Assembly: GCA_031409275.1 (NCBI GenBank)
Contig: JANNXA010000022.1
Location: 1-64,000 of the forward strand
Direction of reading: 5' to 3'
DNA from: Planctomycetota bacterium
Lineage (GTDB): Bacteria > Planctomycetota > B15-G4 > SIAN01
DNA: 64,000 nucleotides
Below the pieces are notes generated by a model. It ran no database searches and was not told the DNA's origin. It was given only the letters and a program-made list of their open reading frames with translations. Below, one piece after another: positions 39,767 to 54,433 of the stretch; position 1 is the stretch's first letter, and every line of letters begins with the position of its first letter. The translations under genes were made by a program, and so were the position numbers.

Positions 39767-40965
39767 CAGCGCTTCACCAGCTGCGCGCCGCGGTAGTAGT
39801 AGCTGACGATCTCGCGCCACTTCTTGCCGGCGGCGCCGAGGCCGGCCGCGCCGTACTGGCAGAGGCCGACGCCGTGACCGAAGCCGGCGCCTTCGAACGT
39901 CACGCCACCGCGCGCCACGTCGAGTCGGCGCGCCCAGGCGCTCGGCAGCTTCTCGCCGTCAGTCCTGGCGCCCGCGTTCCAGAGGCGCCGGAACTCCTGG
40001 CTCTCGAACTTCTTGTTGCCGCCGCTCGAGCGGACGGTGAAGCGCAACGCATGGGCGAAGCGGTCGCGCTCGACGTCGATGGCGGAGAGGCCGCTGACCT
40101 TCAAGCGACGCTCGAGTTCCGCGAGCGTGAGGGTGCGCGTCCAGCGGTATTTGGGCGAGGCGGAGCACCACTCGCACTCGACGCCCACGAGTCCGGCGCG
40201 GCCGGCGTCACGGAAGACCTCGGGTCCGTCGACGGTGGCGCCGCCACACGTGCTCATGAAGAAGGAGCAGAGCGGCTTGCCGTCGGCTTCGAGCACATGG
40301 CCACGGGTCGCGGCGACGAGAGCGCGCGCGCGATCATGCTTGGGGCCGGCACCGCCATAGACCTGGTCGGCATCGGTCGCTCGCAGCAACGTCTCGCCGT
40401 GGTCGAGTCGCCAACGAGCGTAGGTGCGCGCCGCCACGGTCTGCGCCTTCAAGGCTTCATCCGGGAAGCTCGACGGCATCTCGGAGAAGAGGACGCCCGC
40501 GACGTACTCCTCGATGTCGAGGACGTTGCTCACCTCGATGCGCCCACGGGCGTCGCGGCGAATGCGCAGGTCGCCGGCGAAGCTCTTCCCCTGGTAGCGG
40601 AAGAAGTCGTCGGAACGAGGTTCGAGGCGCAGCTCACTGGTTGCGAAGGCGACGCCATTCAAGTCGAGGCCGTTGCCGCTGGCGCGCAGCCGGCCGGAGG
40701 TGAGGCGGCGGCCTTCCGCGAGCGAGTTGCCGCCGGCGTCCGCGACGCGATACGCGCCATCGCAGGCGACATCGACGCTGGCGAGGTCGCGTTCGAGCAG
40801 CACCTGCACTTCAGGAATGCGGGCGATGGCGCGCGGGCTCGTGCAGCGCACGAAGATCAGCGCGCACGCTGCGACGAGCGTCGCCAAGGTCGCGGCACGG
40901 CGTGGCATCGCAAGCCACTTGGTGCCTCGCTGGAGCGATCGGGGCAGGCGCAACCTACGCTTCAT
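39763..40965 (-). CDS. SpoIID/LytB domain protein
   Basis: EEYVAGVLFSEMP, EALKAQTVAARTY, DQVYGG, GFGHGVGLCQYGA. Confidence 0.92.
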   Translation of the reverse strand: MKRRLRLPRSLQRGTKWLAMPRRAATLATLVAACALIFVRCTSPRAIARIPEVQVLLERDLASVDVACDGAYRVADAGGNSLAEGRRLTSGRLRASGNGLDLNGVAFATSELRLEPRSDDFFRYQGKSFAGDLRIRRDARGRIEVSNVLDIEEYVAGVLFSEMPSSFPDEALKAQTVAARTYARWRLDHGETLLRATDADQVYGGAGPKHDRARALVAATRGHVLEADGKPLCSFFMSTCGGATVDGPEVFRDAGRAGLVGVECEWCSASPKYRWTRTLTLAELERRLKVSGLSAIDVERDRFAHALRFTVRSSGGNKKFESQEFRRLWNAGARTDGEKLPSAWARRLDVARGGVTFEGAGFGHGVGLCQYGAAGLGAAGKKWREIVSYYYRGAQLVKRW

Positions 40966-41971
40966 GAGCGGGCGCCCCTGCGGAGGGATGGGTCAGGCAC
41001 CAATCGCGACCGCGCGGCGTGAGCTCGCGGCCACGCGGCGTCTTGCGGATCAGCTCGAGGCGCAGCAGATGCGGCTCGTAGACCTCTTCGATCGTCTCGT
41101 CCGCCTCGCCGACGCCGGCGCCGATCGTCTTCAAGCCAAGCGAGCCGTGATCGGCGCGGTGCAGCAGGCCGAGGATGCGCCGGTCCGTCTCTTCGAGGCC
41201 GAGGTCGTCGATCCCCAATCGCGCGAGCCCTTCGACGGCGAGCGGCAGGTCGACGAGCGGGACGCCACGAACCTGCGCGAGATCGCGCAAGCGGCGCAGC
41301 AGTCGATTGGCGATCCGCGGCGTTCCGCGCGCGCGCTCGGCGATGCACGTCGCGGCGGCCGCGTGGAGCGGCAGCTGCAGGATCCGCGACGTACGCTGGA
41401 GGATCTGGATCAGGTGTTCGACCGGATAGGCCTCGAGCTTCTCGTGGATGCCGAAGCGCCCGCGGAACGCAGCCGTCAAGCGTCCTTCGCGAGTCGTCGC
41501 GCCGACCAACGTGAAGGGTTGAATCGGCAGTCGCACCGTGCGCGCGCCAAGTCCCTGATCGATCGGGACATCGACGACGAAGTCCTCCATCGCGCTGTAG
41601 AGGTACTCCTCGACGGCGATCGGCAGTCGATGCACTTCGTCGATGAAGAGCAGATCGCCGCGTTCGAGTCCCGTGAGCAGACCGGCGAGGTCGGCGGGGC
41701 GTGCGAGCGCTGGACCGGAGGTGTTGTGCAGGCGGCTGCCGCATTCGCGCGCGAGCAGGGTGCAGAGCGTCGTCTTGCCGAGGCCCGGCAAGCCCGACAG
41801 CAGCACGTGGTCGAGTGGTTCGCCGCGCATGCGAGTGGCCTGAACCGCGATGCGCAGGTTTTCGACCGTGCGTTCCTGCCCGACGAACTCGTCGAGCGTT
41901 CGGGGGCGCAACGCCCCCTCGTCGGGCGCGTCCTCAGCCCGGTTCAATTGCGCGAACGTGCTGGCGATCAT
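40955..41971 (-). CDS. ruvB: Holliday junction branch migration helicase RuvB
   Basis: LRPRTLDEFVGQ, GLPGLGKTT, FIDEVHR, AMEDF, RGTPRIANRLL, TPRGR. Confidence 0.96.
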   Translation of the reverse strand: MIASTFAQLNRAEDAPDEGALRPRTLDEFVGQERTVENLRIAVQATRMRGEPLDHVLLSGLPGLGKTTLCTLLARECGSRLHNTSGPALARPADLAGLLTGLERGDLLFIDEVHRLPIAVEEYLYSAMEDFVVDVPIDQGLGARTVRLPIQPFTLVGATTREGRLTAAFRGRFGIHEKLEAYPVEHLIQILQRTSRILQLPLHAAAATCIAERARGTPRIANRLLRRLRDLAQVRGVPLVDLPLAVEGLARLGIDDLGLEETDRRILGLLHRADHGSLGLKTIGAGVGEADETIEEVYEPHLLRLELIRKTPRGRELTPRGRDWCLTHPSAGAPAHEA

Positions 41972-42245
41972 GCGACCCCCGCCTGACGAAGCCGATCCCT
42001 CCCCAGGGACGGTGCCGCATCGATCGCTGAAGCGCCGGCGGCACGAGGGCGGAAGCTATCGGTGGCGTTCCGCAGCAGCAAGGAAGCACGCCGGGCGCCT
42101 CACGCGCCGGATCGGCTTCCCCGAGCGGATCCGCTCTCGCCGCCGGGAGATTCCTTGAGTCACGCCACCTCAGGGTCGCGGCTACAACTCGGCACGCTAG
42201 GTGATGAGGAAGTCACTCCCGGAGGGGTGCTCGACGAGCTTGGCT

Positions 42246-42274
42246 TTGACCCGCCCCGGGGAAGCGCGTACAAG
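42246..42274 (+). promoter_or_regulatory. Sigma70-type promoter candidate for lipoprotein paralog 1
   Basis: TTGACC-N17-TACAAG, about 110 nt before the ATG. Confidence 0.5.
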
Positions 42275-42384
42275 GTCGCGTTCTTGTCCAAGGCGGCGCC
42301 GTGCGATGGAGCGCGCAGTGACGGACTGCGTGGCTCGCTTGGCGCCCCCCGCGGATGGACCGACGACCCAGGAGAGCTGGAACG

Positions 42385-45300
42385 ATGCGTCGAAACGCTT
42401 GGCGAGCTGAAGCGGCCGCCCTCGCCGCGGCGGCAATGGCGGTGGCGGCGTTCACCAGCTGCGGTGGTGGCGGTGGGGGTGGTGCGTCGCGTCCGAGCGG
42501 CGTCGACGATCCCGTCATCGTGCTGAGCGGACCGCCGGGCCGGCTGTCGCAATCGATCGACGAGGCGAACGTGGGGAACGGCGCCACTCCGCCGCCCGCG
42601 CTGACGCCGAGCGTGACGACCAGCAATCACTGGTTCCGTCTCGAGTTCCCGTTCCCGATCCAGCGCGCCGACCTGCTCGAGAACAGCGTCTTCACTGCGC
42701 CCTTCTCGTACCTGAACGGCGCGATCACCGTGAACGACCTCGTCGGCGATCACCTGCCCGGCCTCGCGATGGTGAACGGCATCGATGCGCTCGGCGTGAA
42801 CCACGCCAACGACCCCGGGTTCCCGCACGACGTGCAGGGCTCGGTGGACAAGAACCTCGGCAACAACGTCTTCCTCTACGTCGCCGACTCCGATCGCAAT
42901 CTGTCGACCTTCGCGACGTTCGGATTCGAGCTGAACGGTGTCACCAACGCCAAGGACGAGATCGCGTCGGTGACCGATCACGAGAACGGGACGCTCGACA
43001 CGGTCCGCATCACCGTCGCGAAGATCGACGGCTTCGAGTGGAACGCGGTCTGGACCTTCTCGATCGGCAACACCAATGATTCGCGGGTCCCGGACGTCGT
43101 GCGAATCGCCTCGGAGACGCGCAGTCCGCTCGATCCGCTGAATCCGGGGTCGATCGATGTTTCCGGATCGTTCATCGTCGAGTTCTCGGAGCCGGTGGTG
43201 CCGCGCAGCGTCGGCGACTCGCCGATCTTCGGCGTCGACAGTTTCTTCGGCAACACGCCGCGGACGCCGCGCTTCATCGTCGGCACCACGTTGCCGAACC
43301 TCCCGTATCCCAACACGTTCGTGACGGCGACGGTCAACACGTCGATCGGGGCGCTCTTCGTCCCCTTCGACTGCCGGCCGCTCAACTCGAACAACCTCGC
43401 CACCTACCGCCTGCGTCCGCTGATCGATCTGCCGCCCAACAGCAGCATCGACGTCGGCGTGCGCGCGCTCGTGCTGAACACGAATTCCGTCACTGGTGCC
43501 GCGGATGCGGTTCGGGATCTCAGTGGCAACTCCTATCCCGGCGAGCTCGCGGACATCGACGGTGACGGGATCCTCGACCCGATCAACTTCACCAGCACCT
43601 TCGTGAGTGGACCAGGTGCCGGTCTCGTGAACATCCCGGTCTCGCCAGAAGTCGTCTACTGGTTGCCGACGACGGGCGACGGCATCGGCGCCATCGACCT
43701 GAACGGCCGCGGTGTCACCACGAACACACCTGGCGCGAACATCAACGATCCCGAGAAGGCGTTCATCATCACGCAGCTCTGGTTGAACGCTGCCGGATGC
43801 GAGGTGCACCCGGGCGGGCTGAATCTCGCCAACGGGATCGCGCTCGAGGGCTATCCAGGCAGCGATGCGACGCCGCTCGATCCGTGCACTGGTCTGGCGA
43901 TGGTCGAGTTCGGCCACAACCGATACCTCTACCCCGTCGGCACCGGCGCCTACGCCTACGGCCCCGGCCCGAACGCGCTCCGTGGTCAGCCTTGGTTCGC
44001 CCCCAACGACCCGGGCAACCCAGGCACGCCGTTTCCTGGTGTGAACGAGGGTTCGAGCGGCTTCGAAACGCTTTGCCGCGACAGCACCGGCGACGTCATC
44101 CTGACCGGGCGGCAGTTCGGCCGCGTCGGAACCGTGAATGACCTGATCGTCGGTGAGTTCCTCGACCTCGTCTACTTCGACCAGGCGAGCACCAGGACCA
44201 ATCCGCTCCTCCATGTGACGATCTGGAACTCGGGGCGTCCCCACACGCTGACCGGTCGCGGGAACACGATCGCCGACCCGCCGACGCCCAACCCGCCGCC
44301 TCTGCGCTACTGGTTCGGGTTGCCGGAGATCGGGACGGTTCCCGACCGCGTGAACCCCGAGAACCCGCCGCTCCTGATCGAGGGCGAAGAGGTGTTCCTC
44401 GGGCCGCGCGGCGGCAGTGGTTACGTGCAACTCCAGCCCAACGAGATCCGGCCTGACGCGCCCGATCAGACCGTGTTCCCGCACATCGGGCACGGTCCGG
44501 GCCTGCAGTCGTCGAGCGCCGCCTTCACCTACTCGTCGCGCCAGCAGATCGGCAACTTCCTCTACGCGACGGACAGCACGAATGGTGTCGTGCAGGTCAT
44601 CAACAGCAACACGATGCGCGTCATCTCGAGCATCTCGACGCCGAATCCGACCGGGCTTGCGATCGCGCCCGACATGTCCAAGCTCTACGTGTCGAACTTC
44701 GGTTCGAACAACGTTTCGATCATCGGAACGAATCCGCTCGGCAACGACTTCCATCGCGAGATCGCGCGCATCGCGGTCGGCGAAGGCCCGCGAGCGATCT
44801 GCGTGCAGCCTGAGCACGAAGAGATCCTCGTCTGCAACTACACCGGGAACACGGTCTCGCTGATCTCGAGCGTGGACTTGAGCGTCCGCAAGACGCTCGA
44901 CGCGCTGATCAGCGGCCCCTACGACATCGAGGCGTCGCCGCGCCAGATCACTCCCTTCTCTCCGAGCCCCAACAACCCGACGCAGATCGGCTGGGCGTGT
45001 GGCCTCTACTTCGCCTACGTCTCGAACTTCAACGGCAACACGGTCGTCGTCTACGAGTCGGGGCCGGATGGATCGCAGGGCATCGGCATCGACAACGTCC
45101 GCGGTTCGCTTCCGAGCGATGACGCGGCCGGCGAGCTGCTGGCGCCCCGTGGCCTCTGCTACGACCCGTTCCCGAATCCTTCGGGGCTTTCCGCCGGCGG
45201 TTGCTTCGTGGCTCACCGTGACGCCGAAGGACGCGGTCGGGTGAGCGAGATTCAGTTCACCGTCCAGGCGCAGCTCGGGCCGTTGCCGATTCAGGCGCCG

Positions 45301-45708
45301 CCGGGGCTCACGACTCCGCCGGGATTCCTCGATCGAGTCTTCCAGATCGTGAAGACGTGGGGGAACCTCGACACCGCCCGCTTCATCGGGATCTCACCGA
45401 CCGACGTGACGTTGTCGGACCTGTCGACGGCGGCGTGGCAGGCGCGACCGTCGGGGGCGCCCAACCTCGGTTGCGTTTCGATCCCGCCGACGGTGGCCCT
45501 GACCGGCGCGATCAACTCGAAGAACCCGATGCGGCTCAACACTCCGTTCTGCTTCCCGGCGGTCACGCCCGATCGCCTCTACGTCTCGTTCGAGGACGTG
45601 GGCGCGGTGCAGGTGCTGAGCCCCGCTGTCCCCGGAACGATCCTGCGGACCATCACTGATCCTGGCGTCGGTGGCGTTCGAAAGGTCGTTTCGTACTGGC
45701 GGCAGTAG
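42385..45708 (+). CDS. Large surface lipoprotein, paralog 1 (Ig-like domain and YVTN-type beta-propeller)
   Basis: Lipobox FTSC then GGGGGGG; VEFSEPV...DLSGN; repeats such as LYVSNFGSNNVSIIG and IAVGEGPRAI. Confidence 0.85.
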   Translation: MRRNAWRAEAAALAAAAMAVAAFTSCGGGGGGGASRPSGVDDPVIVLSGPPGRLSQSIDEANVGNGATPPPALTPSVTTSNHWFRLEFPFPIQRADLLENSVFTAPFSYLNGAITVNDLVGDHLPGLAMVNGIDALGVNHANDPGFPHDVQGSVDKNLGNNVFLYVADSDRNLSTFATFGFELNGVTNAKDEIASVTDHENGTLDTVRITVAKIDGFEWNAVWTFSIGNTNDSRVPDVVRIASETRSPLDPLNPGSIDVSGSFIVEFSEPVVPRSVGDSPIFGVDSFFGNTPRTPRFIVGTTLPNLPYPNTFVTATVNTSIGALFVPFDCRPLNSNNLATYRLRPLIDLPPNSSIDVGVRALVLNTNSVTGAADAVRDLSGNSYPGELADIDGDGILDPINFTSTFVSGPGAGLVNIPVSPEVVYWLPTTGDGIGAIDLNGRGVTTNTPGANINDPEKAFIITQLWLNAAGCEVHPGGLNLANGIALEGYPGSDATPLDPCTGLAMVEFGHNRYLYPVGTGAYAYGPGPNALRGQPWFAPNDPGNPGTPFPGVNEGSSGFETLCRDSTGDVILTGRQFGRVGTVNDLIVGEFLDLVYFDQASTRTNPLLHVTIWNSGRPHTLTGRGNTIADPPTPNPPPLRYWFGLPEIGTVPDRVNPENPPLLIEGEEVFLGPRGGSGYVQLQPNEIRPDAPDQTVFPHIGHGPGLQSSSAAFTYSSRQQIGNFLYATDSTNGVVQVINSNTMRVISSISTPNPTGLAIAPDMSKLYVSNFGSNNVSIIGTNPLGNDFHREIARIAVGEGPRAICVQPEHEEILVCNYTGNTVSLISSVDLSVRKTLDALISGPYDIEASPRQITPFSPSPNNPTQIGWACGLYFAYVSNFNGNTVVVYESGPDGSQGIGIDNVRGSLPSDDAAGELLAPRGLCYDPFPNPSGLSAGGCFVAHRDAEGRGRVSEIQFTVQAQLGPLPIQAPPGLTTPPGFLDRVFQIVKTWGNLDTARFIGISPTDVTLSDLSTAAWQARPSGAPNLGCVSIPPTVALTGAINSKNPMRLNTPFCFPAVTPDRLYVSFEDVGAVQVLSPAVPGTILRTITDPGVGGVRKVVSYWRQ

Positions 45709-45745
45709 GCGATCGACTCGTCGATCGATTCCGGCGCACGATCGG

Positions 45746-45788
45746 CTCGGCTCGCGGCGACCCAACGTCGTCGCGAGCCGAGTTCATT
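45746..45788 (+). terminator. 16-bp stem-loop after paralog 1
   Basis: CTCGGCTCGCGGCGAC-CCAAC-GTCGTCGCGAGCCGAG (one G-U pair) followed by TTCATT. Confidence 0.7.
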
Positions 45789-46155
45789 CCGGCGACTGCT
45801 TGACGCGTCCGGTGCTGGGGGCCGCGGCACGGCGGCGACGGAGCGGAGTGACCCCGGTCGGTCGGGTGGACTAGAAGCCAACTCGACTCCTTCCAGGGGG
45901 GCGTCGGCTTCGAGCGAGCGGATTCGCGCGAGTCGCCGCTCGTTGCCGTTCCTCGGGGAAGTTTCGGGGCGCCAGCGCATCCGGCACGGGGGATGCTGAA
46001 CTAGAAGGTGCGAGTGGGCGAGGAGCCGGGGGGCCCCGGGGAGTTTTTTGACCCTTCTCTGGGGCTCCCCGATAAAACCTCTCCCTTTCGCGGCTACCGC
46101 CAACAAGCCTGCGGTGACCATCCGTTCGACCGAGCGATGTAGGAGAACGAGCGCA

Positions 46156-49100
46156 ATGCGAGCGATGCCGATCCGTCTCTCGACGAGAGTGCTCGGGGTG
46201 TCCAGCGGGGCGCTGTTGCTGACCAGCTTGCTGCAGGGGTGCGGCGGCGGCGGCGGCGGCGGCACCTCCAACGCAGGCGGCAACGTGAATGACGTCCCGT
46301 TCCTGCTGGTGGGTACGCCCGGAAAACTGTCGCAGACACCCACCGAGGCGAACGCGGGCGCCGGTCTCGCGCCGCCCCCGACGTTTGCCACGACGGTGAC
46401 CACGGACAACCACTGGTTTCGAATCGAGTTCCCGTTCGACATCGAGGCGAACACGATCCTCGACTCGACCGCGAACCTGGCGCCGTTCTCCTACTTGAAC
46501 GGCAACATCACGATCGTCGACGTGAATGGCGCGCATGTTCCTGGGCTCGCGTTGGTGAACGGTCGCGACGCATTCGGCGTCGATCGCAGCTCCAACCCAG
46601 GATTCCCGCATGACCTGACGACGAGCGGGCGCGACTTGAACCTCGGCAAGCGCGTCTTCCTCTTCGTCGCCGACGTCGATGGCAACCTCGCGACTCCTGC
46701 GGCGTTCGGCGGATATCTGCCGGATCCGAACAACGCGAACGGAATCATCGAATCGACCACCTCGATCCTCGATTCGGTGCGCATCAACGTCTTCTCGATC
46801 AACGGGATCACCACGGAAGCGGCGTGGACCTTCTCGATCGGCAACACCGACACGCGGCAGCCGTTCGTGATCTCGATCGGGTCGGAGGAGCGCAGTCCTC
46901 TTGATCTGCTGAACCCGAATTCGACCTCGTCCTCCGGCGCGCTGATCGTCCAGTTCTCCGAGGCGATGGTCCCGCGGACGGTCGGGCGTTCGGCGGTCCT
47001 CGACGGCGCTCCGTTCGACGGGAACATGCCCAATCCGATCCTCTCGGCGAACCTGCCGCCGACGGCGATCATCGCGACGGTCAACCTGAACGTCGGCACC
47101 TTGTTCGTGCCGTTCGATTGTGCGCCGCTCAACATCAACAACCTCACGACCTACCGCCTTACTCCGCTGATCCCGTTGCCGTCGAACTCGTCGATCGACG
47201 TGTTGATTCGAAGCTTCACGACGAACAACGTCTCCGCGACCGACCTGTCGGGCAACAGCTACGACGGCCAGGACACGACCGGGGACGGCGTCGGCGATTC
47301 GGTCGACCATTCGGTGACCTTCGCAGTGGGGCCGGGGCCGGCGGTTGCGAACGTTCCGGTCTCGCCGGAGGTCATCTACTTCGCGCCTTCTTCCGGTGAC
47401 GGAATCGGCGCCATCGACCTGAACGGCAACGGCTTCACGACGAACACTCCTGGCGCGAATGCCGGCGATTTCTCGGTCGCTCCGATCGTGACGCTGCAGT
47501 GGCTCGATACGCAGGGCTGCGAGACGCAGCCCGGCGGCCTCAACCTCGCGAACGGGATCGGGCTGATCGGCTATCCCGGCAACTCTCCGACGCCGACCGA
47601 TCCCTGCACGCTCGTTCCGATGGTCGAGTTCGCCCACAACCGCTACTACTACCCCGTCGGCCTCGGCAGCTTCCCGTTCGGGCCGGTCGCCAATGCGGCG
47701 CGCGCCAACTCGGGCGGCGCCTTCCCCGACGAGTGGTTCGCCCCCAACGATGCCGGCAATGCCGGAACTCCGGTTCCTGGCGTGAACGAGGGATCGAGCG
47801 GCTTCGAGACGATCTGCCGTGACAGCAACGGCGAAGCGATCCTCACCGGGCGCGAGTTCGGCGTCGTCGGCAACGTGCAGGACATGATCGTCGGCGACTT
47901 CCTCGACCGCGTCTACTTCGACCGCTTCAACCTGCGCGCGCAGACGGGGCTGCACATCAGCTTCTTCGGCGGCGGCGCGAGCACGCTCGGCCGCAACCTG
48001 ATCTCCGATCCGCCGATCCCCAACCCGCCGCCGACCCGTTACTGGGTCGGGCTGCCGCAGGTCGACGTCAATTTCGACGCGAACTCTCCGGGCACTCCCG
48101 GCGTGTTGATCGAGGGCGACGAAGTCTGGACCGGGCCGCGTCCGAATGGCCCGGCCGCCGTCTCAGGCGTCCTCGGCGCCGGCGACACTGCGCGGGCCTT
48201 CAACGGCTATCTGCACCTCCGCAGCAATCCGATCTCGGCAAACTCGCACGACATCCAGCTTCTCCCCTTCGCCGTTGGCCCTGCGAAGGGGTGCCTTGGC
48301 AACGGCCCCGGCCACCAGTCCGCCACGTCGGCGTTCTCCTTCGCGTCGCGCCAGCAGATCGGCAACTTCCTCTATGTGACGGACGCCTCCTCCCGCGAGG
48401 TTCAGGCGGTCAACTCGAACACGATGCGCGTGATCTCGAGCATCTCGTTGCCCGACCCGACCGGACTCGCGATGTCGTCGGACATGGAGTTCCTCTACGT
48501 CACGAACTTCTCCAACGACAGCCTCTCGGTGGTGTCGTGCGACCCGACGTCGCCGCAGTTCCACCGCGAGATCGCGCGAGTTCCGTGCGGCATCGGTCCG
48601 CGCGCCATCGCCGTTCAGTCGGAGAACGAAGACATCTTCGTTTGCAACTACCTCGGCAACACGGTGTCGATCATCAACCCGGCGTCGCTCACCGTGCGCA
48701 AGACGCTCGACGCGCTGATCAGCGGTCCATGGGATGTCGAGGTGGCGCCGCGCCAGGAGCAGCCGAGTGCCCCGCACCCGTCGGGTTGGGCTTGCGGCCT
48801 CTACTTCGCGTACGTGTCGAACCTGATCGGCAATACGGTCGTCGTCTACGAATCAGGGCCGGACGGGCCGCGCGGTATCGGCATCGACAACATTCGCGGC
48901 TCGCTCCCGAATGACGACAACAGCGAGGAGCTCGTCGCGCCGCGCGGACTCTGCTTCTCGCCGTTCGCCAACCCGCTCGGGCTCTTCGCCGGTGGCGTCT
49001 TCGTCGCCCACCGTGACGCCGACGGCAACGGCCGCGTCTCGCACATCCAGTTCACCCAACAGGCGCTGTTCGGCCCGCTTCCGATCCAGGTGCCTCCCGG

Positions 49101-49503
49101 CTTCTTCCTTCCGCCTGGCTTCACCGATCGCGTCTTCGAGATCACTTCGACCTGGGGCGCCACGGCAAACTCCGTGTTGGCCGGTGACCTGCCGACGGAC
49201 GTCTGTCTCGCGGACATGAACACGGCGGGCTACCAGAGCAATCCGTCGGCGGCACCGAACTTCGGCGGGGTTGGCGATGCGCCGCAGCCGGAACGTTCGG
49301 GTGGAGTGAACTCGAAGAACTTCCTCCGCCTCGTGTCGTTCGGGGCGTCGATGGCGATCGTTCCCGACCGCCTCTACGTCAGCTTCGACGACACCGACCA
49401 GATTCAGGTGCTGTCGCCGACGCAGGCGGGATTGGTGCTGAAGACCATCGACGGCCACGGCGGTACGGGCACGAAGAAGCTCGGCGCCTTCTGGCGGCAG
49501 TGA
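46156..49503 (+). CDS. Large surface lipoprotein, paralog 2
   Basis: AGGAGA RBS; lipobox LQGC then GGGGGGG; colinear with paralog 1 (e.g. PGVNEGSSGFET, RQQIGNFLY, VRKTLDALISGP). Confidence 0.87.
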   Translation: MRAMPIRLSTRVLGVSSGALLLTSLLQGCGGGGGGGTSNAGGNVNDVPFLLVGTPGKLSQTPTEANAGAGLAPPPTFATTVTTDNHWFRIEFPFDIEANTILDSTANLAPFSYLNGNITIVDVNGAHVPGLALVNGRDAFGVDRSSNPGFPHDLTTSGRDLNLGKRVFLFVADVDGNLATPAAFGGYLPDPNNANGIIESTTSILDSVRINVFSINGITTEAAWTFSIGNTDTRQPFVISIGSEERSPLDLLNPNSTSSSGALIVQFSEAMVPRTVGRSAVLDGAPFDGNMPNPILSANLPPTAIIATVNLNVGTLFVPFDCAPLNINNLTTYRLTPLIPLPSNSSIDVLIRSFTTNNVSATDLSGNSYDGQDTTGDGVGDSVDHSVTFAVGPGPAVANVPVSPEVIYFAPSSGDGIGAIDLNGNGFTTNTPGANAGDFSVAPIVTLQWLDTQGCETQPGGLNLANGIGLIGYPGNSPTPTDPCTLVPMVEFAHNRYYYPVGLGSFPFGPVANAARANSGGAFPDEWFAPNDAGNAGTPVPGVNEGSSGFETICRDSNGEAILTGREFGVVGNVQDMIVGDFLDRVYFDRFNLRAQTGLHISFFGGGASTLGRNLISDPPIPNPPPTRYWVGLPQVDVNFDANSPGTPGVLIEGDEVWTGPRPNGPAAVSGVLGAGDTARAFNGYLHLRSNPISANSHDIQLLPFAVGPAKGCLGNGPGHQSATSAFSFASRQQIGNFLYVTDASSREVQAVNSNTMRVISSISLPDPTGLAMSSDMEFLYVTNFSNDSLSVVSCDPTSPQFHREIARVPCGIGPRAIAVQSENEDIFVCNYLGNTVSIINPASLTVRKTLDALISGPWDVEVAPRQEQPSAPHPSGWACGLYFAYVSNLIGNTVVVYESGPDGPRGIGIDNIRGSLPNDDNSEELVAPRGLCFSPFANPLGLFAGGVFVAHRDADGNGRVSHIQFTQQALFGPLPIQVPPGFFLPPGFTDRVFEITSTWGATANSVLAGDLPTDVCLADMNTAGYQSNPSAAPNFGGVGDAPQPERSGGVNSKNFLRLVSFGASMAIVPDRLYVSFDDTDQIQVLSPTQAGLVLKTIDGHGGTGTKKLGAFWRQ

Positions 49504-49519
49504 GCTGCGGAACGCACCG

Positions 49520-50371
49520 ATGCAGCGCCTCGATCCACGCCAGAAGTCGGGAGCCGACGTGCGACGCATGTTCGATGCGATCGCGCCGAGGTACGACCTC
49601 CTGAATCGCGTGCTCTCCGCTGGGAGTGACGTGCGCTGGCGCCGACTGGCGGTGGCTCGTGCCTTGGCGGGATTGGAAGGTGCGCTGGTCGCGGATGCGT
49701 GCTGCGGCACCGGCGACCTCGCGATCGAGCTTGCGCGCGACGCGAGGACGCGACGAGTGGTCGGTTTCGACTTCGCGCAAGCCATGCTGGCGCGCGCGCA
49801 TGCGAAACGACCGGAAGGGGCGAAGGCCGACTTCGCCGTCGCCGATGCCCTGAAGTTGCCGGCGCGCAGCGGCAGTTTCGATGCGGTGACGGTCGCATTC
49901 GGGCTGCGCAACGTGGTCGAGCCACGCGCCGGGATCGCGGAGTTGTGCCGGTTGCTGCGCCCCGGCGGCCGTTTGATCGTGCTCGAGTTCTTCACGCCGG
50001 AAGGTGGGTTCTGCGGGTCGCTGTTCCGCGCCTACTTCCGTCATGTACTGCCGCGTATCGGGCGACTCGTCGCTCGCGGCGCTGCGGTCGACGCCTACCG
50101 CTACTTGCCGGAGTCGGTGGAGTCGTTTGCGCGAGTGGAGGAGGTGGCGAACTGGTTCGCCGCTTCCGGTTGCGAGGAGGTCTGCTGCGAGCGCCTGCTG
50201 TTTGGCGCCGTCGGCCTGATCTCCGGAGTGAAGCGCGTCGCCGCGGGGCAAGCCGCGGGGCAAGTGATGGGAACGACGCGCGTGTTGGGTGGCTTGACTT
50301 CGACTTCGACGACGCGCCGCAAGGCGCCCGTGCCGTACCTTGGAGATTCGCCGTGTTCGGAGAATCCATGA
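49520..50371 (+). CDS. ubiE: Ubiquinone/menaquinone C-methyltransferase (UbiE/MenG) with C-terminal extension
   Basis: MFDAIAPRYDLLNRVLS, DACCGTGD, VAFGLRNV, LRPGG, AYRYLPESV. Confidence 0.93.
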   Translation: MQRLDPRQKSGADVRRMFDAIAPRYDLLNRVLSAGSDVRWRRLAVARALAGLEGALVADACCGTGDLAIELARDARTRRVVGFDFAQAMLARAHAKRPEGAKADFAVADALKLPARSGSFDAVTVAFGLRNVVEPRAGIAELCRLLRPGGRLIVLEFFTPEGGFCGSLFRAYFRHVLPRIGRLVARGAAVDAYRYLPESVESFARVEEVANWFAASGCEEVCCERLLFGAVGLISGVKRVAAGQAAGQVMGTTRVLGGLTSTSTTRRKAPVPYLGDSPCSENP

Positions 50372-53300
50372 CTCGCGATTGGACGCGGAAGGGGTGGTTC
50401 ATCGGAGCCGCTCTCCTGGCCACGCTCGGGGTGTCGGCATGTGGCGGCGGGGGCGGCGGGTCGGGCGGATCGCGGGGCGATGAGCTCACCGACCCGGTGA
50501 TCGCGCTGTTCGGTCCGACCGGCAAGTACTCGCAAACGCCGACCGAGGCCAACTCCTCTGGCGGTGCGATCAAGCCGCCGTCGATGCCGACCGGCACGAC
50601 GACGAACCAGTTCCTGCGCCTCGAGGTGCCGTTCGTCGTCGACCGTCGCGACATCGTGTCGCCCGATCCGGTCTACCGCCCGTTCTCCCAACTGACGGGC
50701 AACCTGGTGGTGACGGACTCGACTGGCGCGCACGTGCCCGGTGTCGCTGTCGTCAACGGCATCGATGCGTATGGCAAGTTCCGCGGCAACGACCCGGGGT
50801 TCCCGAAGGACCTCTCCGGCAGCGGTGCCGACCGCAACCTCGGTGCTGGCGTCATCCTCTACATCGCCGATGACGGGGATGGTGACCTGTCGACGGTCGC
50901 CGCGTTCGGCGGCAGCTCTTCCGATTCGGACTCGAGCCCGACGACAACGGACCTGACGTCGCTGCGCATCTCGCTGAACGACCTGAACGGTCGCTCCATC
51001 GACGCCTTCTACACCGTCACCATCGCCAACAGCGCATTGGGCGACACCGTCGGACCGAGCGTCGTGTCGATCACCGCCGAGTCGGTGGACCCGCTCGACC
51101 CGCTGAATCCGGCCAAGTGCTCGACGAGCTCGCGTTTCATCATTCGCTTCAACGAGCCGTGCGTGCCGACCACGGTCGGCAAGTCGGCGACGCTCGACGG
51201 CACCCCGTTCATCGGCAACCTGCCGCGGCTCGGTCTCCCGGGTTCGCCGCCGCCGAAGCCGCTTCCGAATACGCACATCACGGCGACGCTGAACGTCAAC
51301 CGTTCGCAGCTCTTCCTGCCGTGCGACATCCGGCCGCTCAACTCGAACAACCTCGCGACCTACATCGTGACGCCGCTCGTCGATCTGCCGGCGCAGCGCA
51401 CGATCAACATCGTCGTCGTCGATGCGAACGCCAACCGCGACGCGAATCTCACGCAGTTCGGTGCGATCGACCTCGTCGGCAACTTCCACACGCCCGGCGC
51501 TGACGCTCGCGGCATCTTCACCGTGGCGAAGGGGCGAGCGCCCGCTTGTGCCCCGGTCTGCCCGGAAGTCTTCTACTGGCTGCCGGTCAGCGGAAGTGGC
51601 CTCGGCGCCGTCGACCTGAACGGTCAGGGATTCACCACCAACACGCCCGGACACGGCGCGAGCGACTACCACTTCGCCTCGCTCATTTCGCGGGTCGCCA
51701 ACACCACCAGCGCGGTCGGCATCCTCGGCAGCGGCAACCGCTACTCCTGGCCGGTCGGAACCGGGAGCTTCATCTACGGTCCTGGTTTCTCGATCGGCGG
51801 CCAATCGTGGCAGGGCGCGCCGAGCGATCAGGGCAACAGCGGCACTCCGATCCCCGGCATCAATGAGAGGTCGTCCGGATTCGAGACGCTCGTTCGCAAC
51901 GCCGACGGGGACGTGATCCTGACCGGCACGAACAACGGCACGCTCGGAACGGTGGCCGACATGGTCGTCGGCGACTTCCTCGACGCCGGGATCTCCGACA
52001 CGCTGAGCTTGTTCAACAACCCCGGCTTCCACACCTCGTTCTTCTGGGGCGGTGGCTTGTCGCGCAACGCGCTCGGCGATCCGCCGATCCCCAACCCGCC
52101 GCCGCTGCGTTATTGGGTCGGACTGAACCCGATCGACATCCTGATCGATCAGAACAACCCGCTCGGCAAGGCGCGCATGATCGAGGGCGAAGAGGTCTGG
52201 TCGGGCACATTGAGCAGCTACTCCTTCGTCGTTCCCGACGCGATCAACCCGGTCGATGTCGACGATCGCCCGACCGGCGGCGCTGTGAACGGTCCGAATC
52301 CGCAGTCGGCCACGGCCGCCGTCGCCTACGCGGCACGCCAGCAGGTCGGCAACTTCCTCTACGTGGTCGACGCGACGGCGGGGCTCCTACAGGTCGTCAA
52401 CTCGAACACCTTCCAGATCATCACTACGCTCGACCTCCCGGGTCCTTCGGGCGTCGCGGTGATGCCGAACAATCGCTTCATCTTCACCGCGAACGCGGGC
52501 AACGACACGATGTCGGTGATCGGCTCCGATCCGACGCAGCCCGACTTCCACACCGAGATCGCGCGGGTCCCGGTCGGTCGCGGTCCAACCACGATCTCCT
52601 GCCAGGGCAACGGCGAGGATGTGTTCGTCGTGAATGCGCTCGACAACACCATCAGCATCGTCGAGCTCGGCACGCTTACCGTGCGCAAGACTCTCGACGC
52701 CCTCATCGACGGGCCGCGCGAAGTCGTGCTGACGGCTCGCCAGAACGGCTTCGGATGGAGCGCCGGCGTCTACTTCGGCTACATCGCCAACTTCACCGGG
52801 AACAACGTCGTCGTCTACGAATCCGGCCCCGACGGTCCGCAGGGCATCGGCTGCAACAACGTGCTCGGGTCGCTGCCGACGACCGGAAGCGACGTGGAGA
52901 TCTTCGAGCCGCGCGGGCTCGTCTATTCGCCGTACGCCAACGACCAGGGGCTCTATGCGGGCGGCGTCTACGTGACGCACCGCGACAACTCCGGCGCGGG
53001 GATGATCAGCCACATCCAGTTCACCCACCAGGCGCTCTTTGGTCCGCTGCCGTGCGTGTTGCCGCCGGGCAACTTCTTCATCCCGCCAGGCTTCAACGTG
53101 CGCGAGTTCGAGGTGGTCGGCCAGTGGGGCGCCAGCGGTCAGACGCCGCTGCTCGGCAGCAAGCCGAGCTCCGTCGTCCTCACCGACTTCCGCTACGACT
53201 CCTACTCGCTGCTCACGACCCAGCCGCCGAGCCAGGACGGTCGCGGCACGCCGGGATTCGGCGGCAAGAACACGCGCCACCCGATCCAGTTCGTGCAACC

Positions 53301-53481
53301 GCCCGATCCGCGCGCTCCGCACCTCCCGATCGTCGAGCCGGACCGCATGTACGTCGCGTTCGAGGACTCTGACCGCATCCAGGTCCTCGATCCGATCCGC
53401 ATCGGCGCCGCGATCGGCGAGCTGAAGGAGCGGACGGGCGTCGGCGTCCGCAAGCTCGTCGGGTACTACGACAGCCAGTGA
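50368..53481 (+). CDS. Large surface lipoprotein, paralog 3
   Basis: Lipobox VSAC then GGGGGGSGG; same conserved blocks (DPPIPNPPPLRYWVGL, RQQVGNFLY, YESGPDGPQGIG); ATGA overlap with ubiE. Confidence 0.87.
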   Translation: MTRDWTRKGWFIGAALLATLGVSACGGGGGGSGGSRGDELTDPVIALFGPTGKYSQTPTEANSSGGAIKPPSMPTGTTTNQFLRLEVPFVVDRRDIVSPDPVYRPFSQLTGNLVVTDSTGAHVPGVAVVNGIDAYGKFRGNDPGFPKDLSGSGADRNLGAGVILYIADDGDGDLSTVAAFGGSSSDSDSSPTTTDLTSLRISLNDLNGRSIDAFYTVTIANSALGDTVGPSVVSITAESVDPLDPLNPAKCSTSSRFIIRFNEPCVPTTVGKSATLDGTPFIGNLPRLGLPGSPPPKPLPNTHITATLNVNRSQLFLPCDIRPLNSNNLATYIVTPLVDLPAQRTINIVVVDANANRDANLTQFGAIDLVGNFHTPGADARGIFTVAKGRAPACAPVCPEVFYWLPVSGSGLGAVDLNGQGFTTNTPGHGASDYHFASLISRVANTTSAVGILGSGNRYSWPVGTGSFIYGPGFSIGGQSWQGAPSDQGNSGTPIPGINERSSGFETLVRNADGDVILTGTNNGTLGTVADMVVGDFLDAGISDTLSLFNNPGFHTSFFWGGGLSRNALGDPPIPNPPPLRYWVGLNPIDILIDQNNPLGKARMIEGEEVWSGTLSSYSFVVPDAINPVDVDDRPTGGAVNGPNPQSATAAVAYAARQQVGNFLYVVDATAGLLQVVNSNTFQIITTLDLPGPSGVAVMPNNRFIFTANAGNDTMSVIGSDPTQPDFHTEIARVPVGRGPTTISCQGNGEDVFVVNALDNTISIVELGTLTVRKTLDALIDGPREVVLTARQNGFGWSAGVYFGYIANFTGNNVVVYESGPDGPQGIGCNNVLGSLPTTGSDVEIFEPRGLVYSPYANDQGLYAGGVYVTHRDNSGAGMISHIQFTHQALFGPLPCVLPPGNFFIPPGFNVREFEVVGQWGASGQTPLLGSKPSSVVLTDFRYDSYSLLTTQPPSQDGRGTPGFGGKNTRHPIQFVQPPDPRAPHLPIVEPDRMYVAFEDSDRIQVLDPIRIGAAIGELKERTGVGVRKLVGYYDSQ

Positions 53482-53568: not shown

Positions 53569-53659
53569 TCGTCGTCGCCACGCTGCGCACCCCTGTGGTA
53601 GTGTCCGCCCCGTCGTTTCGACGAAGGAGCGGTCGCGGGTGGCGAGGCGAATCAAGGCC

Positions 53660-54433
53660 ATGGCGGCGCGAAAGAAGGCTCCGGCGCTCGACCTTCAGGC
53701 CTACCTGCGCCTGACGCGCGGCGTGACGGTGTCGATCGCCTATCTCCTGCCGCTGCTCGCCGCCTACGAGGTCGGTCTGCAGATGACCGGCTGCGATCTG
53801 CGCAACTCCGCCGAACTGTCGCTCAAGCTCGCCGCTGGATTGTTCGGGGACTTCGGTCCATGGATCCAGCGCGCGGTCCTTGCCGGCGTCCTCTTCGTGG
53901 CCATCCGCCTCGCGCGCCGCAACGTGCCGGCGCTGCGTCTCTATCCCGTCTTCCTGCTCGAGGCGACGCTCTTCGCGCTGCTGCTCGGACCGCTCGTGGG
54001 CACGCTCGTCGATGGCACCGGACTCGCGGCGCATCAGGCGATCCCGGCTTCGATGAACGACGCGAACGGCGTCGCGGTGGCGCCGCCGCTGGCGGAGCGC
54101 GTCCTGCTCTCGATCGGTGCCGGCGTCTACGAGGAACTGGTGTTTCGCTTCCTGCTGCTCGCCGGCGGCTTCGCGTTCTTGCATCGCGGGCTCGGCCTCG
54201 AGCGGCGGCTCGCGCTCGGCTCGGCGGTGCTCGCCTCGGCGCTGCTCTTCAGCGGCTACCACCACATGGGGCCGTCGGGCGAGCCGTTCGTCGCCGGGAC
54301 CTTCCTCTTTCGTGCGGCGGCCGGACTCGCGCTCGGACTCGTCTTCACCTGGCGCGGTCTCGCGTTGTGCGCCTACCTGCACGCCTTCTATGACATCTTG
54401 TGCGACCTCACGTGGCGCGGAGCATCCTCATGA
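53660..54433 (+). CDS. CPBP (CAAX/Abi) family intramembrane protease
   Basis: YEELVFR, LFSGYHH and LHAFYD motifs; multi-TM. Confidence 0.88.
   Translation: MAARKKAPALDLQAYLRLTRGVTVSIAYLLPLLAAYEVGLQMTGCDLRNSAELSLKLAAGLFGDFGPWIQRAVLAGVLFVAIRLARRNVPALRLYPVFLLEATLFALLLGPLVGTLVDGTGLAAHQAIPASMNDANGVAVAPPLAERVLLSIGAGVYEELVFRFLLLAGGFAFLHRGLGLERRLALGSAVLASALLFSGYHHMGPSGEPFVAGTFLFRAAAGLALGLVFTWRGLALCAYLHAFYDILCDLTWRGASS

Follow-up and report, generated by a model that had tools for sequence, protein, structure and literature searches.

What does a planctomycete do with three large, paralogous lipoproteins of no named family that are encoded almost side by side? The question is raised by a 64,000-nucleotide stretch of a Planctomycetota bacterium genome (lineage B15-G4; SIAN01; assembly GCA_031409275.1, contig JANNXA010000022.1, positions 1 to 64,000; hereafter the window), in which three paralogous genes, here designated A, B and C and together with their homologues family I, had been read in an earlier note as encoding candidate lipid-anchored surface-coat lipoproteins. 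We put at roughly one in two the probability that these proteins are exported, lipid-tethered subunits of an outer coat resembling a surface layer (S-layer), each a propeller on a stalk of immunoglobulin-like (Ig) domains, and that this coat is shared with three companion lipoprotein families (II to IV). Export and lipid-anchor signals are present and the proteins are apparently non-enzymatic, while the coat role gains weight from the core status of family I and its concerted change with families II to IV. That role is supported because both recognizable parts of the protein match surface-layer proteins best by structure (1l0q for the propeller; SbsC, tied with other folds, for an Ig domain), and because family I is a core gene at a fixed chromosomal site, is conserved at the level of housekeeping genes, co-occurs with families II to IV and lost its anchor in concert with them in one lineage (f2).

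Three paralogous lipoprotein genes

42385..45708, forward strand: paralogue A, 1107 amino acids (aa), lipobox Cys26 followed by seven Gly, end YWRQ, TIGR02276 above cut-off
46156..49503, forward strand: paralogue B, 1115 aa, lipobox Cys29 followed by seven Gly, end FWRQ, the copy used for the structure model
50368..53481, forward strand: paralogue C, 1037 aa, lipobox Cys25 followed by six Gly, end YYDSQ

The three open reading frames (ORFs) aligned from end to end (full-length identity: A/B 54.8%, A/C 41.4%, B/C 43.1%; BLAST E 0.0), as expected for the ~110 kDa paralogues that the earlier note had described, and the lipobox with its run of six or seven glycines can be read directly in each. 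Every conserved block quoted in that note was located, as were the three C-termini, and the claimed N/T/S/G/P-rich composition was confirmed (N, 6.1-7.4%; T, 7.0-7.8%; S, 7.3-8.3%; G, 10.9-12.5%; P, 8.6-9.7%), with 0.7-1.4% K in proteins that are acidic. Two of its descriptions needed narrowing: the genes share a strand but are not contiguous, as a menG/ubiE ORF (49520-50371) separates B from C, and the acidic DxDG-like motifs do occur, but the widely kept part is the D-x-D pair of the first domain only (kept in 74-78% of 157 non-redundant homologues, out of 366 pooled rows, on which conservation was measured throughout). The Cys-pair loop present in A and B is missing from C, and no fourth copy was found in the genome's own assembly. 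Outside the class, 34 of 38 homologues have the lipobox pattern. A poly-Gly lipobox is not peculiar to A, B and C: eight of the ten pattern matches in a genome scan were other proteins, none of them matched by the family profiles, and the pattern itself missed B. Export would proceed by Sec, followed by lipidation at the Cys of the motif.

Non-coding gaps precede A (41972-42384, 413 bases) and B (45709-46155, 447 bases, with a hairpin and T run at 46026-46049), and the start of C overlaps the end of menG by 4 bases. A promoter scan of the region was uninformative (0 sigma-70-like sites; three terminator-like sites vs. 7.1 in shuffles).

Predicted architecture

46297..46842, forward strand: B domain 1 (residues 48-229), predicted decorated beta-sandwich with weak Ig-type structural matches (Z up to 5.5)
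46849..47337, forward strand: B domain 2 (residues 232-394), predicted Big_5/SbsA-type Ig-like domain bearing the FSE..DLSGN motif
47365..49491, forward strand: B propeller module (residues 404-1112), predicted seven-bladed YVTN propeller closed by the C-terminal strand

Residues 44-1115 of B were modelled with AlphaFold2 from an alignment of 86 sequences (predicted local distance difference test [pLDDT], 88.2; predicted template modelling score [pTM], 0.85), and the domain layout of A was taken from alignment to modelled B. This model and its Foldseek comparison, which the earlier note had proposed as a check, returned Ig-like sandwiches followed by a YVTN propeller; the YVTN-type blades seen previously are present but belong to a full seven-bladed propeller, ~710 residues long in the model. 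The closest structure is the Methanosarcina surface-layer protein 1l0q (VIA; Z 33.0, root mean square deviation [rmsd] 2.1, 293 residues aligned over model 361-1069, 24% identity), which was the best match also by Foldseek (E 9e-14) and by sequence. Because the model aligns to the whole 1l0q propeller, that of B is predicted to be complete, with ~400 extra residues inserted, the largest insertions spanning residues 423-546 and 583-731. Judging by the DSSP string and a presumed blade register of 1l0q, the large insertions would lie in a-b and c-d loops on one face, and blade 1 would be closed by the final strand ahead of the Y/F-W/F-x-Q end. The insertions, folded as part of the whole protein and never alone, brought up no listed structural match. 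In 1l0q, too, the seven-bladed YVTN propeller is paired with a beta-sandwich domain (PKD); family I differs in having two Ig domains before the propeller, ~400 inserted residues, a bacterial lipobox and a single rather than a tandem propeller.

When the N-terminal 360 residues were folded alone, two beta-sandwiches were again predicted (pLDDT 94.7). Domain 2 resembles by structure the Ig domain of SbsA/SbsC-type (Big_5, PF13205) S-layer proteins (SbsC 2ra1: Z 9.4, rmsd 2.5, 99 aligned), and Big_5 scored above its cut-off in three distant homologues; unlike in SbsA and SbsC, only one such domain is present. Library scans of the Pfam type detected no S-layer homology (SLH) or other wall-binding domain in A, B or C. 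By analogy with LdtMt2- and SbsC-type spacers, the Gly linker and the two Ig domains may hold the head off the membrane, and the propeller with its insertions is predicted to be one rigid body (pTM as above). Complex prediction with two 492-residue propeller modules of a shorter homologue (L181) scored 0.00 against a mark of 0.42 ("no answer"), which is evidence neither for nor against packing.

Residue conservation and enzyme families

Library scans of A, B and C gave short matches only, namely Pfam lactonase/YNCE models over 70-100 residues and TIGR02276 (34.2, 33.3 and 27.4 bits, respectively, vs. a cut-off of 27.85, leaving C just below). PF10282 passed its cut-off for C (22.2 vs. 21.7 bits, ~75 of 344 positions matched) and PF21783 remained below its own; no full-length YncE/6-phosphogluconolactonase match was found (NF052280, 19.0-19.5 bits for A and B vs. 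a cut-off of 400). The earlier note had named a full-length match to a characterized enzyme family as the result that would overturn its reading; none was found, all equivalog scores being far below cut-off, and its statement that no named family can be assigned holds for all three proteins. Hydrazine synthase beta (21-38 bits vs. 560) and lactonase-type NosZ (20-25 bits vs. 700) were rejected as identities on these scores and on the lack of invariant His or Cys. Conservation falls mostly on Gly, Pro, Asn, Asp and Arg, and the conserved polar residues include R689, Q690, E782, D783, R805, R823, E856 and H909 of the model. No invariant His/Cys set was found among the 157 representatives (best His 84%, best Cys 59%); the family is apparently non-enzymatic.

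An alternative is that the proteins are exported lactonase/YncE-type propeller enzymes, possibly connected with the menaquinone genes menG, ubiX and mqnP: the automatic names of homologues ("YncE family" or "beta-propeller fold lactonase family"), the PF10282 score of C, several polar residues conserved at 86-94% and the adjoining quinone genes (45 of 73 loci each) point that way. We consider it very improbable: the propeller superfamily is shared, but family matches span 70-120 residues only, those to PF21783 and PF10282 covering <12% of A, B and C, and the His/Cys result speaks against catalysis. Quinone synthesis is a cytoplasmic or membrane-bound process, which also weighs against this reading. 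A link to menaquinone synthesis was also rejected on gene order, since the ruvB/menG cluster exists without family I in four genomes and family I keeps its site where menG or ubiX/mqnP is missing.

Distribution and chromosomal site

A profile search for distribution and copy number, another check proposed in the earlier note, was run on the genomes of the class and on an even sample of 401 Planctomycetota genomes at least 85% complete. Family I was found in 40 of 42 class genomes, including all 19 of good quality (the two without a match are 72% and 58% complete), and in 78 (class profile) or 81 (broader profile) of the 401 phylum genomes. Its presence is nearly all-or-none by genome family (f9, 14/14; f15, 7/7; f8, 0/24; f16, 0/23; f28, 0/19), and family I is an undescribed core gene of a large Planctomycetota branch. 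Many genomes show a single match, and copy number reaches at least five in G021.

The neighbours of A, B and C that bear on the chromosomal site are as follows.

40955..41971, reverse strand: ruvB, divergent from A, marking the fixed insertion site (47/73 loci)
49520..50371, forward strand: menG/ubiE quinone methyltransferase between B and C, above the TIGR01934 cut-off
53639..54433, forward strand: intramembrane protease of the CPBP (Rce1-like) type that retains the E-E-x-x-x-R, H and H motif residues

Across 73 family I loci, recurrent neighbours were the CPBP protease (53), holA (50), ruvB (47) and menG, ubiX, mqnP and mutL (45 each), with spoIID near the same housekeeping cluster; the remaining loci were short contigs or extra copies elsewhere. 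Among 17 family-negative genomes with a CPBP locus, ruvB directly abuts menG in four (L188, L190, L192, L204), two keep the genes in altered order and the rest have another context; family I therefore sits at the head of an older housekeeping cluster. The menG/ubiE gene is a housekeeping neighbour and probably lies outside the system. The CPBP protease, for which no NCBIfam subfamily name was obtained at E 1e-5, is the commonest neighbour, yet it occurs in 264 of the 401 phylum genomes, nearly always once, vs. 81 with family I, and was rejected as a dedicated partner. Sorting of family I as a CPBP (myxosortase-like) substrate was likewise rejected: besides the same mismatch in distribution, the C-terminus is the closing propeller strand and lacks a hydrophobic helix.

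Several incomplete or distant relatives were encountered. A second family I copy in G009 (L035:10089-13390) is broken over three reading frames by frameshifts or assembly errors. Shorter f2 ORFs (open frames of 432-672 aa) match the N-terminal Ig region of family I only, over the following parts.

G008:C70:70151-71122: matched part of a shorter f2 ORF
G018:C116:70102-70989: matched part of a shorter f2 ORF
G026:C324:449-1324: matched part of a shorter f2 ORF
G034:C651:3743-4618: matched part of a shorter f2 ORF

Among proteins of 198-630 aa, a stand-alone N-terminal form was represented by one 442-aa match only. At least one weak match, in G297, is a distant lipoprotein with two Big_5 domains and a propeller (L199:1618-3795; end YWNQ) at a site other than ruvB/menG, and is a possible outgroup or source of family I.

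Evolutionary behaviour

In a FastTree phylogeny of 80 rows (with long-branch warnings for the deepest), family I sequences cluster according to genome family, and local duplication has happened repeatedly. A, B and C fall into separate clades, each with the same four-genome topology, so that all four genomes of the genus in the tree hold one-to-one orthologues of each. Family I is vertically inherited, and the three copies are a local expansion. Compared with the nearest genome, A, B and C are 81-86% identical, against 81-84% for menG, mqnP and the CPBP protease, and the ratio of nonsynonymous to synonymous substitution (dN/dS) in this one genome pair is 0.22-0.23, against 0.15-0.26 for those neighbours. 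The most variable parts are the two large insertions (dN/dS 0.34-0.36). Family I is thus a conserved core gene and not a hypervariable set; dN/dS at housekeeping level and the separate orthologue clades led us to reject antigenic variation, and the "adhesin set with diversified surfaces" of the earlier note is weakened by the same orthology, identity and dN/dS of about 0.22.

It is doubtful that the proteins are stand-alone surface receptors or adhesins, in which a propeller on an Ig stalk binds a small ligand, glycan or cell and paralogues differ in specificity. BtuG1/G2 (Z 24.8-24.9) and Leptospira Lp49 (Z 24.6) are surface proteins with the same seven-bladed propeller; the variability of the two insertions and a copy number that varies through duplications recurring within lineages also count in favour. 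BtuG and Lp49, however, have only ~340-410 residues and no large insertions, and BtuG works with a TonB-dependent transporter, whereas neither such a transporter nor another uptake gene was seen among the annotated recurrent neighbours of family I; housekeeping-level conservation and a fixed site over many families also speak against a receptor.

The same vertical inheritance, together with core status, an often single match and a place in a housekeeping cluster near spoIID, would suit a scaffold in the periplasm or an accessory to an envelope machine, in either case a lipoprotein, perhaps oriented towards the periplasm, next to the machinery of outer-membrane assembly or of peptidoglycan. For the N-terminal pair, the top Foldseek rows were the Ig spacers of LdtMt2 (E 1e-5, with poor global fit), and BamI of Bacteroidota, as presented in passages of PMC12578637, combines an Ig domain with a propeller. 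We regard such a role as unlikely: parts of a stoichiometric machine are seldom duplicated again and again, as family I has been (at least five copies in G021), the annotated recurrent neighbours include no beta-barrel gene, and the N/T/S/G/P-rich, Lys-poor, acidic make-up would better fit an extracellular protein.

Companion families and concerted change

The genome itself encodes other Gly-linker lipoproteins of ~1000 residues, most with a weak Big_5 match.

G000:C14:209049-218831 (L222): family II, three tandem copies of ~1020 aa, 70-80% identical, no named domain beyond weak Big_5
G000:C16:217863-220964 (L223): family III, glycine-rich Big_5 lipoprotein
G000:C27:147584-150565 (L224): family III, glycine-rich Big_5 lipoprotein
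G000:C36:116715-120122 (L225): family IV, usually one match per genome, codon rank 15 of 2315

A fifth Big_5 lipoprotein of 1069 aa lies at G000:C27:139719-142928 (L224:3719-6925; Big_5 E 2.5e-20). Families III and IV are homologous (hhalign probability 100%) and both have long glycine-rich tracts; homology of family I to II-IV was not detected by hmmsearch, and hhalign gave a weak Ig-domain match to IV only (probability 43%). For family IV, no solved structural relative was found by sequence, and its Atlas neighbours are unnamed Planctomycetota clusters. Family III has undergone a large expansion in G006 (23 matches on many contigs).

Families II, III and IV, whose members are 1000-1700 aa long, occur in 37, 40 and 39 of the 42 class genomes, respectively. 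Of the 401 phylum genomes, 39 gave a family IV match, and every one of these is family-I positive. Outside the class, II and III were searched in 80 chosen genomes (50 of 53 family-I positives and 30 of 320 negatives); 18 of the 50 positives had II and 21 had III, and none of the 30 negatives had either. In all these searches, II-IV came up only in genomes with family I. This co-occurrence is suggestive, as kin are not independent. Where a non-class genome has both II and III, the two are adjacent on one strand (11/11), and in 13 of 14 loci of f4 and f5 (L292-L305, chosen for looking clustered) II, III and IV lie within 20 kb on the same strand. A prepilin peptidase (A24) gene follows III in 13 of these 14 loci, often with an EF-G paralogue also between III and IV, which may hint at a link to type II/IV export. 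In the genome of the window and in the f2 loci fetched, II, III and IV are scattered.

In lineage f2, few proteins show the lipobox pattern: 1 of 18 in family I, 0 of 5 in II, 0 of 11 in III and 1 of 9 in IV, vs. 23/28, 24/25, 22/24 and 19/20, respectively, in f1, f3, f4 and f5 (the counts for II-IV leave out three subtilase ORFs and three rows truncated at the ends of loci). The two f2 matches look like chance cysteines inside ordinary signal peptides; outside f2, a Cys-Gly run is visible by eye in all four II-IV proteins that the pattern missed, and the five family I proteins without it are additional f5 copies away from the syntenic site. Lgt is present in all five f2 genomes, and three of four f2 YfiO/BamD-type ORFs have the lipobox pattern. 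N-terminal lysine is 4.5% in f2 family I vs. 1.0-3.6% elsewhere, and 2.9-6.9% in f2 families II-IV (one row with a misplaced start aside) vs. group means of 0.8-3.3%; no lysine enrichment was seen in the f2 housekeeping neighbours ruvB, menG, mqnP and spoIID. Length also changes across families: f4 has the longest members of family I (1477-1580 vs. 1037-1115 in f1), III (1598-1706 vs. 973-1001) and IV (1409-1452 vs. 1096-1137).

That four genes at separate sites appear to change their anchor together would fit a shared structure, and the lipid anchor seems to be dispensable in f2. Independent receptors would need no simultaneous anchor loss in four families. An exported protein without a lipobox Cys stays in the periplasm by default, and loss of the Cys would leave family I there, as a periplasmic scaffold would have it. 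Under the coat reading, f2 subunits may instead be held by their neighbours, or by lysine-rich N-termini binding acidic surface polymers.

Weighing the coat reading

For the proposed coat, the proteins would cross the outer membrane and pack side by side with their own copies or with families II-IV, and their surface exposure, high abundance and packing are what we infer beyond the genomic observations and the predicted fold. Family I is exported, large, acidic and N/T/S/G-rich, with Ig and propeller domains and an anchor, traits that many S-layer proteins share but that also occur elsewhere. A codon score trained on 30 ribosomal-protein-cluster genes and applied to 2315 genes of 300 codons or more (crude gene calls) ranked B 53rd, C 91st and A 115th (top 2-5%); as codon bias in the genome is weak, the ranks may at most hint at high abundance. 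The folds themselves are known, and S-layers made of lipoproteins have been described before. Passages of PMC12578637 describe a Bacteroides S-layer formed by the ~100-kDa surface lipoprotein Bt1927 as a lattice on a diderm cell; family I is likened to it by description as a large lipoprotein, but Bt1927 is phase-variable with an adjacent barrel partner, whereas family I is a fixed core gene with no such neighbour. According to parts of 10.1101/2024.05.28.596244, S-layer folds include Ig-like ones and a propeller S-layer is predicted for Dehalococcoides; excerpts of 10.64898/2026.10.20.760564 place SbsA Ig-like proteins among the leading Poribacteria identifications.

Several points weigh against a coat. 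Many proteins that form no coat also have Ig or propeller folds (BtuG, Lp49, BamI, LdtMt2), and for domain 2 folds from outside S-layers tie with SbsC, alpha-2-macroglobulin (Z 9.1) and CopC (8.8) scoring within 1 Z. Shared descent by itself would lead related genomes to carry I and II-IV together; no member of II-IV turned up in 21 of the 50 family-I positives outside the class (single-class profiles, of limited sensitivity), which belong to nine deeper-branching families (f7, f15, f36, f45, f49, f67, f71, f82, f91), and chromosomal linkage of family I to II-IV was found in no locus examined. Anchor loss in f2 is one lineage event, which a changed export route for surface lipoproteins would also explain; two f2 subtilase ORFs also without a lipobox (their orthology being putative) point that way. 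Family II is longest in f2, though f4 (1222-1286) exceeds f1 (1017-1050), and the codon signal consists mostly of T-ending codons and may be of compositional origin. As to the literature, a planctomycete S-layer-like structure outside anammox bacteria is claimed for one strain only in PMC12288469, and the main text of a Saltatorellota preprint (10.1101/817700) contains neither "S-layer" nor "lipoprotein".

A bolder form of the coat reading, which we hold tentatively, is that a hetero-polymeric, inherited coat of at least four Ig-stalked lipoprotein families of 100-170 kDa wraps a mostly uncultured Planctomycetota branch. Its families would be unrelated or distantly related (a propeller head, two glycine-rich heads and one fold unassigned), with genes at two ancient chromosomal sites and with anchor type and length co-evolving. 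Such a coat would be unlike the single-protein, fast-turnover S-layers described so far; bacterial S-layer proteins are characterized as poorly conserved and of many origins in sections of 10.1101/2024.05.28.596244 and PMC12288469. No description of family I was found in the literature searched, which excluded subscription papers and bioRxiv supplements, so that a planctomycete member in the S-layer preprint's supplements would have escaped notice.

Significance

If the coat reading is true, a coat family held at one site across some twenty Planctomycetota families, with three co-evolving partners, would be an exception among S-layers, and would for the first time open to molecular study the envelope of planctomycete lineages that have been seen almost solely through metagenomes. 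Even without a lattice, family I is a clean lineage marker, at present mislabelled as YncE or lactonase, and lineage f2, in which all four lipid anchors appear to have been lost, offers a natural experiment in the export and retention of surface proteins.

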